From: a bacterium
GTDB lineage: Bacteria; Patescibacteriota; Minisyncoccia; UBA6257; 02-FULL-45-10c
DNA: 64,000 nt
NCBI GenBank assembly: GCA_030700025.1
Contig: JAUYKI010000006.1
Location: forward strand, 13,428 to 77,427
Direction: 5' to 3'
Part shown: piece by piece, positions 14,166 through 57,517 of the stretch
Layout of the letters: every line of letters starts with the position of its first letter
Position numbering within the stretch: position 1 is the first letter of the stretch
The notes under the pieces: generated by a model
What the model was told of the DNA's origin: nothing
Database searches by the model: none
Seen by the model: only the letters and a program-made list of their open reading frames with translations
Translations under genes and position numbers: made by a program

Positions 14166-14270
14166 TTTTTTATTGTCTGAGGCTTTCTTCTCTCGCTACC
14201 GTTCAAACTCCCAGTCCCTCACTTTTGTACAAGAGTGAGGGAAGTTTTCACTGGGTTTCGGATTTCGCTC
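14166..14270 (+). repeat. Family-3 repeat unit, left part (interrupted by Family-1 copy B; right part 14403-14470)
   Basis: contiguous in the 58-kb homolog, split here by the 132-bp Family-1 element. Confidence 0.75.
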
Positions 14271-14402
14271 GCCCAGCCCTATTTATTTTGAGGAACATCC
14301 CGCAGGCGTATTTTGCTTGGACCACAAAATACGCCGAGGGCGAAGAAAATCCGGCCGCTGGAGCCGGATTATTCTGTTTCCGAGAAGTAGATAGGGCTGG
14401 GC
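14271..14402 (+). repeat. Family-1 element, copy B (full length with GCCCAGCCCTAT terminal inverted repeats; core 14292-14381)
   Basis: conserved 5-prime 57 nt; second stem AATCCGGC/GCCGGATT around loop CGCTGGA; nested inside a Family-3 repeat. Confidence 0.85.
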
Positions 14403-23272: not shown

Positions 23273-23362
23273 GGAACATCCCGCAGGCGTATTTTGCTTG
23301 GACCACAAAATACGCCGAGGGCGAAGAAAGTTTTATCGCTGGAATAAAACTATTCTGTTTCC
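23273..23362 (+). repeat. Family-1 element, copy C (core)
   Basis: ~98% identical to copy A reverse complement; flanked by direct CCGTAGG heptamers. Confidence 0.85.
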
Positions 23363-25299: not shown

Positions 25300-25494
25300 G
25301 CCCAGCCCTATCTATTTCTTGGAAACAGAATAGTTTTATTCCAGCCCCGACGTAAAGTCGGGGCTCCGACATCTTTATTTTAAAAATTTAATAACGAAGC
25401 GTCGGAGCGATAAAACTTTCTTCGCCCTCGGCGTATTTTGTGGTCCAAGCAAAATACGCCTGCGGGATGTTCCTCAAAACAGATAGGGCTGGGC
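25300..25494 (-). repeat. Family-1 element, copy D (full length, TIRs GCCCAGCCCTATCT; core 25321-25473 with 63-nt insertion in the CGCT/GGA loop)
   Basis: insertion itself forms two hairpins (GCTCCGAC...GTCGGAGC and CCCCGAC-TTTAC-GTCGGGG). Confidence 0.85.
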
Positions 25495-25579
25495 GCTCGG
25501 TTTGTTTGGGTATTGGGAAGGCGGTAGCGGCTTCGTTATTCTTGTTTAAGTTATAAAATCGTGATATAATATAATAACT

Positions 25580-27376
25580 ATGACCGAAAAAGGCCCCGAC
25601 TTCCTCAAAAAGAAATACGACCTCCACAAAGCTCCGGAAACGGAAACCGCCGCCAAGCGGACGGAAAAAAGAACTAACGAAAAAGTCCCTCAAGCTCCGG
25701 AAGCCCGCATCCAAAACTACCTCAACCGCTTCAAGGAAATCATAGACCGGAAAGACCCGGAAAAACGGGAAAGAGGCCTGGAAGCCATAAAAAAAGTCCT
25801 CTACGATAAATTCGTCATCCAAGAAAACGAAATCCCGGAATCATACTTTGAACTCCAAAAACGGATTGCGAGAGAACAAGGCCATGGAGAAATTGAAATC
25901 TCCAAAGAACAAAAAGACCAGCTAACCGAAGTAGTCATTACCGACCAAAGAACCACCTTGGATAACTGGGTAGACTACCTATCCTCTCCAGACGCCACCT
26001 ATCCGGACTGGCTCAAATACTGGACTATCCGGAGCATTCTGGGAATAGGCGAATACGACAAAGAAAAGAAAGAATTCACTAAACGCTCCAAAAGCACTAC
26101 CAAGCCCTTCCTGGATATCAATCGGGAAGCTTTAGCCTATGTGCTAGACGCCGTTTCCAAAAAATACGGCCAACAGCACACCAATCTCCTTAACCTCAAT
26201 GAGCAAGAAAGAAAAGACTTTGAATCCCTCCTCCAAGGAGAAAACTTCGCCAAACTCTATGCCTGGGCAATAGAAAAAACTACCGTCGCTCCTCAAGAAG
26301 CCCTGGCTAATACCCAAGGCAAATGGATTAAATACAACCAAGGACAAGACCATATGCCCTTAGTCCAATCCCTTCAAGGACACGGCACCGGCTGGTGCAC
26401 GGCCGGAGAATCCACCGCCAAAACCCAGCTTCAAGGAGGGGATTTCTATGTCTTTTACTCCATGGACAAAAAAGGCAAACCCACCCTTCCCAGAGTGGCT
26501 ATCCGCATGAACGGCAATCAAATCGGAGAAGTCCGGGGAATTGCTCCGGATCAAAACTTGGACCCCTATATCGGCGATATAGTCCAAAAGAAAATGACCG
26601 AATTTCCTGACGGCAAATCTTATGAGAAAAAAGCTGGAGACATGAAAATGCTGACTGCCATAGAACAGAAAACCCTTCGGCTCCGCTCAGGGCAAGCCAA
26701 TCAAGAATTGACCAGGGAAGAATTACATTTCCTCTATGAAATGAACCAAAAAATTCAAGGATTCGGCTATCAAAGAGACCCGCGGATTGAGGAACTAAGA
26801 AAACAAAGAAATTCGGAAGAAGATATGTTGATTATTTTTGAATGTACGAAAGACCAGATTGCCCACACTCCGAAAGAAATCAATTCAAATACTAAAGCCT
26901 ATGTCGGTAAAATTAAACTGGGTATTTTTCAAAAACTACCAGAAAATATCGAGCATGTTTATACTGAATTCCCTGACAAGAAAGTTTTTATGAAAGAGAT
27001 TGTCTCGGATGAAGAAATTATTTCTGCTAAAACCGCCATTCAAAAACTCGAAGTTCAAGGGCACAAAATTGGCGACTATGCCAGAGATATGTTATCCAAA
27101 GTAAATTGGAAGGAAAGTCTAAAAGACTCCTACAACATTATCTCTATTTCTGTTGGGGAACTTTTCGGTGACGCAAACTACCATAATTATGCCGATATCA
27201 AAGCCAAAGCTCGAGAAAGTGGCCTAGACATTATTCCAGCTTCTCTCGCTCCATCAATTCGTTTGAATTATGATAAAAATGGCGAGTGGACAGTCCTCGC
27301 TATGGAAGCGATGCGCGACCGTGACGGTAGTCTTAGGCGTTTCGGCTGGGACGGGGTGGTTCTGAGTCGTGGTTGA
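25580..27376 (+). CDS. DGR target protein (variable C-terminal CLec/FGE-like tail; VR frameshifted in this assembly, probable true end 27444)
   Basis: 3-prime 136 bp (27306-27441) homologous to TR at 27744-27879; differences almost all at TR adenines; AAC-codon register continues past the annotated stop in another frame, ending ...RFFFVRK. Confidence 0.75.
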   Translation: MTEKGPDFLKKKYDLHKAPETETAAKRTEKRTNEKVPQAPEARIQNYLNRFKEIIDRKDPEKRERGLEAIKKVLYDKFVIQENEIPESYFELQKRIAREQGHGEIEISKEQKDQLTEVVITDQRTTLDNWVDYLSSPDATYPDWLKYWTIRSILGIGEYDKEKKEFTKRSKSTTKPFLDINREALAYVLDAVSKKYGQQHTNLLNLNEQERKDFESLLQGENFAKLYAWAIEKTTVAPQEALANTQGKWIKYNQGQDHMPLVQSLQGHGTGWCTAGESTAKTQLQGGDFYVFYSMDKKGKPTLPRVAIRMNGNQIGEVRGIAPDQNLDPYIGDIVQKKMTEFPDGKSYEKKAGDMKMLTAIEQKTLRLRSGQANQELTREELHFLYEMNQKIQGFGYQRDPRIEELRKQRNSEEDMLIIFECTKDQIAHTPKEINSNTKAYVGKIKLGIFQKLPENIEHVYTEFPDKKVFMKEIVSDEEIISAKTAIQKLEVQGHKIGDYARDMLSKVNWKESLKDSYNIISISVGELFGDANYHNYADIKAKARESGLDIIPASLAPSIRLNYDKNGEWTVLAMEAMRDRDGSLRRFGWDGVVLSRG

Positions 27377-27441
27377 ATGACGATGATGGTCGCGATGACG
27401 ACAAGTGGGACGGTAACGGCCGGTTCTTCTTTGTTCGCAAG
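27306..27441 (+). repeat. DGR variable repeat (VR) at 3-prime end of target gene
   Basis: ~136 bp homologous to TR; about 20 TR-A to VR-G differences, 2 non-A differences, one 1-nt deletion in a G-run (27349-27357). Confidence 0.8.
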
Positions 27442-27494
27442 TAGCTTAATTCTTAAATCTTAAGCCCTTTAAACATCTCTTTTTCCTTATCCCT

Positions 27495-27523
27495 TATAAC
27501 TTTTTAAAAAATATTGTTATAAT
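27495..27523 (+). promoter_or_regulatory. candidate promoter with extended -10 (TGtTATAAT) reading toward the DGR template repeat
   Basis: TGTTATAAT at 27515-27523 in AT-rich spacer between VR and TR. Confidence 0.35.
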
Positions 27524-27743
27524 ATATCCGAAAGTAGGTGAATACGCAGACGACTAAGGTTTTCTGCCACCCAAATCAGTATCCATATATCGAGAATATT
27601 TCAGACCAAGGTTTGAAATAGAGTGGTGTATGCAGATTCTTCATAAAAAATGAAGTTACTTGGTTTAGAATCTAGGGCATTATGATGCCGAATACGATAC
27701 AGCTCTGAGAGTATTCTAGGGGCGGTGGTGTAGACGGATTCTA

Positions 27744-27879
27744 AACAATACGCGACCGTGACGGTAATCTTAGGCTTTTCAACTGCAACAGGAATGGTTC
27801 TGAGTCGTGGTTGAATAACAATAATGGTCGCGATGACAACAAGTGGAACGATAACAACCGGTTCTTCTTTGTTCGCAAA
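27744..27879 (+). repeat. DGR template repeat (TR)
   Basis: A-rich with many AAC/AAT codons in the target frame (NNNNGRDDNKWNDNN); followed by hairpin CTCTCCCGAT-TTTGT-ATCGGGAGAG. Confidence 0.8.
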
Positions 27880-27884
27880 TTATT

Positions 27885-28250
27885 TCATTTCTCTCCCGAT
27901 TTTGTATCGGGAGAGTTTTGTTTTGTAAGCTGTCCAAACCAACCGCCAAGCATTTTACCCACCTCATTTATTTTTTCTGAAAGCGCAATATATTTTTTAT
28001 TATCAAGCGACTTGTTTTCCCAAAGAATAAGGAGAAAGATGTTGAGCGTATTGATTTTTTTAATTGCAAGCCTTACATAAGGCGCCTTTTCTTCTCGAGA
28101 AAGAAAAACGGCAACAGAAATAGCCTCTATTGTATCGGTAAATAGATTATCTATCTTTTGACCGATGGTATATCTATGGTTTTTAGGTAGGATCCGGTAA
28201 TATTCATACCAAAGCTGGTAACCGCCTTTGATTTTCTGCAGAATTGGCAA
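27885..28250 (-). CDS. avd: DGR accessory variability determinant (Avd-like four-helix-bundle protein)
   Basis: 121 aa; resembles bAvd/four-helix-bundle family (YQLWYEYYRILPKNHRYTIGQKI ... INEVGKMLGGWFGQL); TTG start; opposite strand to TR and RT. Confidence 0.65.
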   Translation of the reverse strand: MPILQKIKGGYQLWYEYYRILPKNHRYTIGQKIDNLFTDTIEAISVAVFLSREEKAPYVRLAIKKINTLNIFLLILWENKSLDNKKYIALSEKINEVGKMLGGWFGQLTKQNSPDTKSGEK

Positions 28251-28293
28251 TAAATTTGCGAGGGGGGGGGGCTTTTAATGGATCGTTATTGTT

Positions 28294-29286
28294 ATGAAAA
28301 TTCAATTGGCTCATAAATTTGAAGACATTATAAGCGTGGAAAATCTATTGGAGGCATGGAGAGAATTTATCCGAGGAAAACGGAGCAAAAAAGACGCCCA
28401 AGAATTTTCTATTAACTTGATAGATAATATTTTCTCGCTTCATTCCGACCTTGCTGATTTTACCTATAAGCACGGCGGTTATCAAGCCTTTAATATAAGC
28501 GACCCTAAGCCGAGGAATATCCATAAGGCCAGCGTCCGAGACCGCCTGCTTCACCATGCTATTTATAGAATTCTTTACCCATTTTTTGATAAAACTTTTA
28601 TTCCTGATTCTTATTCCTGCCGGATAAATAAGGGTACGCATAAAGCCATAAATCGGCTCCGCTCTTTTGCTTACGAAGTCAGCCGGAATAACACTAAAAC
28701 CTGCTGGATATTAAAGATGGATATAAGAAAATTTTTTGCCAATATTGACCACCTTATTTTACAGGATATTTTGAAGCAATACATACCGGATAAAAATATC
28801 TTATGGCTTTTAGATAGAGTGACTGAGAGTTTTTCCTCGCCATACGGCAATAATAAGGGTTTGCCCCTGGGCAATCTAACCTCCCAACTATTGGTGAATA
28901 TCTATATGAATGAATTAGACCAGTTTGTGAAGCATAAATTAGGAATTAGGCATTATATAAGATACGCGGATGATTTTGTGATTTTGCATGAAAATCGGCA
29001 GTATCTTATAAATCTTTTGCCAAAGATGTCAGTATTTTTAGAAACGCGATTAAAGCTTTTGCTCCATCCGTATAAAGTATTTATTAAAACACTTGCCTCT
29101 GGAGTTGATTTTCTTGGCTGGGTGCATTTCCCGCGCCATCGGATATTGCGGACCGTAACTAAACGAAGAATGTTTAAAAAAATAAATCAAAATCCTACAA
29201 ATGAAACCGCGGCTTCATATTGGGGATTACTTAGTCATGGAAATACGCACAAGCTGATTCATAAAATACGAAAGCTACTCTACTAA
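28294..29286 (+). CDS. diversity-generating retroelement reverse transcriptase
   Basis: 330 aa; RT motifs incl. YADD (IRYADDFVIL); DGR-type motif 4 LPLGNLTSQ (SQ instead of group-II QG); DRLLHHAI motif 2. Confidence 0.85.
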   Translation: MKIQLAHKFEDIISVENLLEAWREFIRGKRSKKDAQEFSINLIDNIFSLHSDLADFTYKHGGYQAFNISDPKPRNIHKASVRDRLLHHAIYRILYPFFDKTFIPDSYSCRINKGTHKAINRLRSFAYEVSRNNTKTCWILKMDIRKFFANIDHLILQDILKQYIPDKNILWLLDRVTESFSSPYGNNKGLPLGNLTSQLLVNIYMNELDQFVKHKLGIRHYIRYADDFVILHENRQYLINLLPKMSVFLETRLKLLLHPYKVFIKTLASGVDFLGWVHFPRHRILRTVTKRRMFKKINQNPTNETAASYWGLLSHGNTHKLIHKIRKLLY

Positions 29287-34691: not shown

Positions 34692-34781
34692 ATCTCTTTA
34701 AAGGAACATCCCGCAGGCGTATTTTGCTTGGACCACAAAATACGCCGAGGGCGAAGAAAGTTTTGCCGCTGGAGCAAAACT
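34692..34781 (+). repeat. Family-1 element, copy E (core; flanks ATCTCTTT / AAAGAGAT)
   Basis: second stem AGTTTTGC/GCAAAACT, a compensatory AT to GC change relative to copies A/C; loop CGCTGGA. Confidence 0.85.
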
Positions 34782-57345: not shown

Positions 57346-57435
57346 GGAAACAGAATAAATTTTTTCCAGCGAAAAATTTTTCTTCGCCCTCAGCGCATTT
57401 TGTGGTCCAAGCAAAATGCGCCTGCGGGATGTTCC
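57346..57435 (-). repeat. Family-1 element, copy F (core; flanks ATATTGTTTTT / AAAAACAATAT)
   Basis: second stem AAATTTTT/AAAAATTT; first stem carries compensatory GCGCATTTTG...CAAAATGCGC. Confidence 0.85.
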
Positions 57436-57517
57436 TAAAAACAATATACCCTTAGCTAATTGACTCAATTTTAAGGAAATAAAAAAAACCGCCGGTTCAT
57501 CCAGCGGTAAATATATT

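Follow-up and report, generated by a model that had tools for sequence, protein, structure and literature searches.

A frameshifted variable repeat in a Patescibacteria-like diversity-generating retroelement, probably made by slippage of its reverse transcriptase

In a survey of 372 diversity-generating retroelements (DGRs), the variable repeat (VR) and its template repeat (TR) differed in length in 25 cases, 11 of them frameshifting; 74% of the length differences adjoined an AAC codon, and they were ascribed to template slippage by the reverse transcriptase (RT) (Wu et al. 2018, PMC5758913). The same survey reported that DGRs of the candidate phyla radiation (CPR) often carry several substitutions at positions other than adenine, and it named the gene order TR-(avd)-RT architecture B3. 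A 2026 study, in which DGR activity was assayed as the repair of an 18-nt deletion in a reporter, proposed slippage as a general component of the bRT error profile (PMC12875486). Here we analyse a 64-kb stretch of bacterial DNA (the whole stretch is called the window below) that contains a complete DGR cassette at 25580-29286, in the order target gene with VR, TR, antisense avd and RT (Table 1). The cassette is a chromosomal DGR of a CPR (Patescibacteria-like) bacterium, and the frameshift in its VR is a further example of the class of frameshifting TR/VR indels described in the survey.

We compared the TR and VR by MAFFT and pairwise alignments. Among the 42 adenines of the TR, 24 are unchanged in the VR and 17 are replaced by G; the VR also carries T>G at 27339 and C>G at 27349, and one base is deleted. 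Substitutions at TR adenines thus make up 17 of the 19, and the single deletion also falls at a TR adenine, as expected of a DGR. The deleted base lies opposite TR adenine 27790 or, equivalently, 27793/27794: the TR reads …AAC AGG AAT GG… and the VR …GAC GGGG TGG…, leaving G4 at 27353-27356 where G5 would be expected. It immediately follows an AAC codon of the TR (AAC, then A, then GGAAT), so that a length difference that is not a multiple of three stands beside AAC, the combination that marks the frameshift-indel class of Wu et al. 2018. A first-pass annotation of the window had already recognized that one nucleotide is missing from a G-run that arose through A-to-G changes, which the alignments bear out; the string that it quoted, GGACGGGGTGG, lies at 27349-27359, about 3 nt from the position given there.

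The gene frame reads …RDRDGSLRRFGWDGVVLSRG (that is, …FGWDGVVLSRG) and ends at a TGA (27374-27376). The frame from 27307 reads …GGSESWLNDDDGRDDDKWDGNGRFFFVRK and runs to a TAG at 27442-27444, and the TR frame from 27742, TIRDRDGNLRLFNCNRNGSESWLNNNNGRDDNKWNDNNRFFFVRK, is open throughout. In the window the VR is not in frame at the 3' end of its target, the stop falling 68 nt short of the point where the TR-homologous frame ends; homologues in the target family do have the VR in frame at the 3' end of the gene. These frames uphold the earlier claims that the 136 bp of the TR (27743-27878) form one open frame and that the target ORF stops at 27376 while the register of the repeat continues to 27444. 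Two invariant 21-mers in the VR and TR have exactly two occurrences in the window and none in shuffled sequence; the repeat is therefore not a chance match, and the window contains no second VR. A search of the 64 kb for a second VR or a paralogue found none. When JGI metagenome contigs were scanned with the invariant VR/TR core (A wild-carded), the 19 matches were all unrelated by blastn, and no other VR variant of the same strain was found in the protein collection or in these contigs.

The frameshift removes a conserved C-terminus. The target (NCBI locus Q8P76_00995 in the protein collection) belongs to a CPR/Patescibacteria family of about 610-625 aa that has no Pfam match, and its relatives lie nearly all in metagenome-assembled genomes (MAGs) of Patescibacteria/CPR. 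Once repaired, the protein is 621 aa long and aligns across 99-100% of its sequence with more than 3,500 homologues of about 600-630 aa in the protein collection. The C-termini of homologues follow the pattern …[DG]G.WL……W…..F.F..RK, the closest homologue (P0030) ending in …SKSWLDDDNGHGDDEWDVDFRFFFARK, and the conserved C-terminus (…SESWL…KW…RFFFVRK) is present out of frame in the window, up to the TAG noted above. Judged by this match, the out-of-frame tail is the real C-terminus of the family. The frame is lost after residue 592, and six junk residues follow. In an AlphaFold (AF2) model built from 110 sequences (pLDDT 88), β-strands span residues 571-573, 585-591, 598-603 and 615-620; because the frameshift falls after residue 592, the last two strands are lost together with L599, W610 and F618 (repaired numbering), which are invariant or near-invariant in the family. 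The truncated 598-aa protein, which lacks part of its presumed ligand-binding domain, is most likely non-functional.

The C-terminal domain modelled alone (pLDDT 87.5) returned mostly C-type-lectin-like (CLec) folds among its top 25 PDB matches in Foldseek, none of them individually significant (best E=0.047, TM 0.4-0.5). The VR-bearing domain accordingly has a likely, not a certain, CLec fold. The remainder of the protein is a separate matter: residues 1 to ~470 (25580-27000) are highly conserved in more than 3,500 CPR proteins, carry the motif LQGHGTGWCTAGEST and have no Pfam match, and the N-terminal part shows weak structural similarity to 'PcfJ-like' phage/plasmid proteins, with one uncharacterised phage protein at E=6e-6.

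Related loci show how often such indels arise. From 80 target-family loci of GTDB species representatives we obtained 36 clean VR/TR pairs, 33 of which have no indel. The VR is 3 nt longer than the TR in L024 and 3 nt shorter in L046. In L073, a 1-nt deletion at a TR adenine, between C and G and outside any homopolymer run, is followed 27 nt on by a 2-nt deletion at AA; the pair restores the frame after scrambling about 8 codons that include a conserved Trp, and both deletions are at adenines outside homopolymers. Disrupted VRs were also sought among the 120 best protein matches. P0004 (L082, run SRR22388351) has an out-of-frame tail and a 1-nt VR deletion (TR CCGGACAATAGG, VR CCGG-CCCGGGG), with the canonical …RFIFVSRK readable in another frame; P0063 (L103, SRR22388082) has a 1-nt VR insertion (TR AAGT-GGAAT, VR GAGTGGGATT), with …EFVFRLRK in another frame; and P0096 (L083, 3970-4054) has lost the 3' half of its VR. 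Overall, ±1 VR frameshifts occur in roughly 2-3% of members, in independent samples, with three among the 120 closest homologues, and the three net frameshifts (window, L082 and L103) all lie in short G-runs made by A>G. The degraded cassettes of the family also include L012 (2850-3330), lacking the 5' half of avd, the repeat tract and ~188 N-terminal RT residues, and L073, with no detectable RT beyond its G11 tract (after 7645).

The spectrum of changes in the window is uniform. All 19 TR-to-VR substitutions are to G, as they would be if dC had been misincorporated in the cDNA opposite 17 A, one U and one C. Pooled across the family, 61% of the changes at TR adenines are A>G (399:121:128), and among 34 loci none is as extreme as the window; against the family spectrum an all-G pattern would have a chance of ~3e-4 (0.616^17). 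An RT restricted to A>G in this clade was rejected as an explanation, given the family proportion and the sister element L104 (TR ~92% identical, run SRR22387761), whose in-frame VR has A>T 12, A>G 11 and A>C 4. A transient dNTP imbalance behind the all-to-G pattern would be a guess. The two changes at bases other than adenine affect conserved scaffold positions, turning [VL]F into RF (L>R before an invariant Phe) and a Cys into Trp. Such changes number about 1 in the median of 33 clean pairs (range 0-5), so a pair of them is normal for the family and no sign of long decay.

We think it probable that slippage of the RT during mutagenic retrohoming, rather than later replication slippage, made the frameshift. 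The TR transcript would have been reverse-transcribed with misincorporation opposite adenines, and the cDNA would have replaced the VR in the last retrohoming event or events. If each misincorporation in this allele placed dC in the cDNA, the nascent strand copied from the template A-G-G-A-A would have held a run of five C with three mismatches, and a primer end slipping by one position there would leave a VR with G4 instead of G5. We infer that the deletion would then be the work of the RT and that a single event would have made all the changes. With the TR and RT intact and the 5' and 3' ends of the VR still homologous to the TR, further retrohoming might in principle bring the frame back. 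Yet the RT depends on avd, and avd is seemingly out of frame at a poly-C tract (discussed below), which probably silences the element and freezes the broken allele. Several points weigh against this proposal. Because the deletion sits in a homopolymer, ordinary slippage in replication, after retrohoming, would account for it just as well. Nor does the proposal account for the all-to-G spectrum: L104 shows that the RT is not intrinsically G-only, and a 'dCTP-biased single event' would be speculation. The second assembly of this locus probably derives from the MAG's own reads and tests the assembler, not the data, and the sequence is known from an assembled consensus, not from reads, so that it might represent a minority or erroneous state.

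The last two points bear on an artefact, in which the VRs of the real population would be in frame and the consensus one base wrong in a hypervariable G-rich stretch. This reading has some appeal, as VRs vary within populations and the two assemblies probably come from shared reads. G is also the commonest substitution in the family, so a per-site majority would appear to be A/G only; a majority-rule chimera would perhaps account for the A-or-G-only pattern as well. We nevertheless regard an artefact as rather improbable. The Logan assembly contig of run SRR13727534 comes from a different assembler and matches 25450-28704 with 100% identity, the G4 run and a G10 tract near avd included, and the VR was assembled as a single unbroken path. 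A de Bruijn/k-mer assembly could presumably shorten a 5-base run only if the reads hold the shorter run, that is, if k-mers containing CGGGGT are present in them. The window is 88.6% coding, with long intact ORFs including one of 1,839 aa; the adjacent same-strand pairs that were checked are different genes and not halves of split ones, and no other frameshift was seen among the genes examined in 64 kb, compared with one in the 135-nt VR. The identical Logan assembly, the lack of split genes and the comparable VR frameshifts in homologues from other samples make an assembly error unlikely, which disfavours the consensus-assembly error that the first-pass annotation had offered as one explanation. 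Replication slippage, by which an in-frame G5 VR would have lost one G later and independently of the RT, seems to us unlikely, yet it is the strongest of the rivals: the missing base can be placed in the G-run, the frameshifts of L082 and L103 are also within short G/C/T runs, and the genome tolerates slippage at its G10 tract. However, runs of 4-5 bases are weak substrates for slippage, no other examined gene in the 64 kb is split although the 135-nt VR is frameshifted, the deletions of L073 are at adenines outside homopolymers, and the survey literature ties TR/VR indels to AAC sites (PMC5758913). It is very improbable that the DGR is a dead element whose VR gathers random mutations (two non-A changes and an indel) on its way to a pseudogene. 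Both non-A substitutions hit conserved scaffold positions, avd is apparently out of frame, and the relatives L012, L073 and L083 have partly deleted cassettes; but two non-A changes are typical of the family and of CPR DGRs, the RT, TR and 592 target codons are intact, and the two non-A changes, having produced G just as every A change did, suggest a common origin for all of them. A recently inactivated target, the second explanation of the first-pass annotation, agrees with the loss of the last two β-strands, but the allele is better seen as a potentially reversible frameshift that the DGR itself most likely made. Rescue of the assembled frame by recoding was considered and rejected: TGA is a genuine stop here, ending 5 of 40 genes while long ORFs stay intact under code 11, and the sequence offers neither an X_XXY_YYZ slippery site nor, at G4, a run long enough for transcriptional slippage.

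The junction of avd and RT contains a second sequence whose length can change a reading frame. The G10 tract is the only G/C homopolymer of at least 8 in the window and lies in the 43-nt gap between avd and RT. Nearly all cassettes of this DGR lineage have a tract at the same place, G8-G11 or (GA)n (~3 to >20 units) in the relatives, and the length varies between close relatives. At 22 of 23 tract-bearing loci the interval from the tract to the conserved Avd N-terminus (…[DG]NAS-IL…) lacks any ATG, GTG or TTG, and an ATG stands 13-47 nt upstream of the tract, antisense to a conserved His codon near the N-terminus of the RT. This upstream ATG is in frame with avd at 9 loci (plus L080 via another ATG) and out of frame at 13, including the window. 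Over the seven codons from the tract to the annotated avd start, the window and L104 differ by 5 synonymous changes and 1 non-synonymous change, counted by eye, so this stretch appears to be translated. The TTG at 28250 that ORF finders choose as the avd start corresponds to a conserved Leu codon in relatives. These sequence features suggest that avd probably starts at the upstream ATG. From that codon (28314-28312), a C9 or C12 tract would give an Avd of 142/143 aa and the assembled C10 gives a peptide of 36 aa, which would make the element of the window currently 'off'.

Avd forms and tract lengths vary among relatives. Avd clusters at ≥90% identity hold long forms, in which the ATG upstream of the tract is in frame, together with short internal-start forms and in-frame variants that differ by one Leu-Ser unit. 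At six loci (L107-L111 and L019) the tract is (CT)11 and Avd is 134 aa long; L105 and L106, from other samples, have (CT)10 and only a 108-aa Avd call, and the flanks compared are identical to those of the (CT)11 loci. Length polymorphism among otherwise identical sequences, as expected of a gene that varies in phase through a simple-sequence repeat (SSR), is thus found in relatives and not in the window's own strain. We therefore entertain, at somewhat less than even confidence, a model in which avd (and in some members the RT) would be translated through a hypermutable poly-C/(TC)n tract and the mutagenic machine would be phase-variable, switching on for a short time, rewriting the VR (at times with a slippage lesion), switching off and freezing the result. 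Combined with the RT-slippage proposal, this model would describe the window as 'off' (C10, with C9 or C12 needed) and holding a frameshifted VR, as would be the case in L082, and target frameshifts would be reversible off-states instead of dead genes. The in-frame fraction of avd (~40%) is near the one-third expected by chance, the TTG at 28250 could still start a shorter Avd, and tract lengths are taken from short-read assemblies, all of which are caveats to phase variation. L082, the other locus with a -1 VR frameshift, also has G10 and an out-of-frame avd; a link between an 'off' avd and broken VRs, present in 2 of 2 cases (window and L082), was rejected as not significant because ~55% of all loci are 'off'.

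The tract may also touch the RT. In the window an ATG belonging to the RT itself follows the tract, an in-frame TAA separating the two, and about half of the related loci have no canonical RT start between the tract and the conserved RT N-terminus. A 12-codon upstream ORF at 28278-28316 (+) (ATG GAT CGT … TCA TAA) begins 6 nt past the G10 tract and extends over the RT start at 28294, an arrangement that might couple translation of the RT to the tract. The poly-G as a Shine-Dalgarno sequence for the RT or as a promoter spacer was rejected, the tract being 22 nt from the ATG and the hexamer spacing wrong, and a promoter scan did no better than shuffled sequence. In the searchable full-text literature we found no paper that links DGRs with simple-sequence repeats or phase variation. 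The first-pass annotation had mentioned neither this tract nor the all-to-G substitutions, the likely origin of the lesion in the DGR itself or its possible rewriting by the intact TR and RT.

The rest of the cassette follows architecture B3. The TR is situated ~440 nt downstream of the VR. The RT matches RVT_1 (E=4e-24), and IRYADDFVIL and LPLGNLTSQLL can be read in its translation, its assignment to the DGR clade resting on these motifs and on similarity; it shares 59-66% identity with the RTs in 24 related cassettes, and an exact-match look-up of the protein returned no record. Avd was assigned by a match to PF22296 (bAvd, E=1e-10) that passes the curated cut-off. The order TR(+), avd(-), RT(+) is kept at all 24 related loci where both genes were found. 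The hairpin after the TR has 10 bp, six of them GC pairs, and overlaps the 3' end of the antisense avd. It occurs with its T-run at the same place in every related locus examined, with stems that differ in sequence and still pair, and it may terminate the TR RNA or belong to a structure recognized by RT-Avd.

The genes around the cassette are of ordinary chromosomal kinds: EF-P, SecD, an FAD oxidoreductase, a 973-aa ORF and ribosomal proteins S13 and S11. An Rfam scan of the window returned two tRNAs only. Six copies of a dispersed intergenic repeat of ~65-80 nt, 93-100% identical and containing an 11-bp hairpin (GGCGTATTTTG…CAAAATACGCC), are also present and have no Rfam match. One of the copies is located upstream of the DGR target gene, just where the Logan contig ends, and a second, shorter repeat piece (~25-34 nt) stands beside some of the copies.

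Table 1. Features of the DGR cassette, loci sharing its repeat tract, and dispersed repeats in the window.
Feature	Position	Strand	Remarks
DGR target gene as assembled	25580..27376	+	598 aa, truncated, VR in C-terminal domain
Variable repeat (VR), 135 nt	27306..27440	+	from alignment to TR
G4 run with frameshifting 1-nt deletion	27353..27356	+	TR AGGAA; A>G would give G5
Premature TGA stop	27374..27376	+	out-of-frame reading of the repeat's TTGAAT (Leu-Asn)
Out-of-frame remnant of true C-terminus, …WLNDDDGRDDDKWDGNGRFFFVRK	27377..27444	+	ends at TAG 27442-27444
Template repeat (TR), 136 nt	27743..27878	+	full open Asn-codon-rich frame; from alignment
10-bp GC-rich hairpin then T-run	27891..27915	+	immediately 3' of TR; terminator-like or DGR-RNA 3' element
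avd, bAvd-like four-helix bundle	27885..28250	-	between TR and RT; listed start TTG 28250
G10 tract (C10 in avd sense)	28262..28271		simple-sequence tract, probably within avd 5' coding region
Probable native avd start ATG	28312..28314	-	antisense to RT His7 codon; 142-aa Avd if C9
DGR reverse transcriptase, intact	28294..29286	+	330 aa; RVT_1 domain, YADD box, LGNLTSQ motif
Loci with tract			L013, L019, L021, L024, L031, L035, L043, L046, L048, L050, L053, L055, L056, L058, L059, L061, L064, L065, L071, L073, L075, L080, L082, L104-L111
Dispersed repeat copies	~25406-25495, 14270-14348 (-), 3941-4016, 23273-23340 (-), 34702-34764 (-), 57379-57443

These findings have practical and mechanistic consequences. 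In annotation, the 598-aa product should be treated as the truncated form of a DGR target of 621 aa, and this cassette would be mishandled by automated DGR callers that need ungapped TR/VR pairs, or VRs inside ORFs. The three ±1 events add to the evidence that DGR RTs slip at mutagenised adenines, which would be a real cost of the mechanism. The repeat tract at avd could matter more than the target frameshift itself: the regulation of DGR activity is poorly understood, and a frame-switching tract in avd, if true, would be a simple stochastic regulator.

The DGRs with frameshifting indels (Wu et al. 2018, NAR 46:11; PMC5758913) are the nearest described relatives of the allele, with which they share a length difference beside AAC that is not a multiple of three, and substitutions at bases other than adenine. 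The survey spoke of 'greater levels of aa mutagenesis', whereas the shift in the window is uncompensated and costs scaffold strands; the window allele differs further in being a loss-of-function allele, as far as its predicted structure indicates, and in having all 19 substitutions to G. The cassette as a whole resembles B3 TR-(avd)-RT DGRs with a CPR 'PcfJ-like' target (category g in Wu et al. 2018; Paul et al. 2017), having the same gene order and an antisense avd. The targets of that category are likewise CPR proteins with the VR at the extreme C-terminus, and the N-terminal part of the window target has weak structural PcfJ-like matches; its PcfJ-like similarity, in contrast, goes undetected by Pfam, and a (GA)n/poly-G tract between avd and RT is unmentioned for B3 DGRs in searchable papers. 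With the Bordetella phage BPP-1 DGR (mtd-avd-TR-brt) the element has in common the adenine-specific transfer from TR to VR, a variable domain that is probably of the C-type-lectin type, the requirement for Avd and RT and a VR whose 3' end includes an invariant stretch. Unlike that system, it has avd on the opposite strand between TR and RT, is chromosomal and not phage-borne, has a strongly G-biased spectrum and shows no evident GC-rich cruciform downstream of the VR. Finally, the avd tract is reminiscent of the SSR contingency loci of Neisseria, Haemophilus and Campylobacter, where single-unit changes in the length of a homopolymer or dinucleotide tract in the 5' coding region switch the frame. 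The putatively switched gene here would differ from those of the contingency loci in encoding the accessory factor of a mutagenic retroelement and not a surface structure or a methyltransferase.

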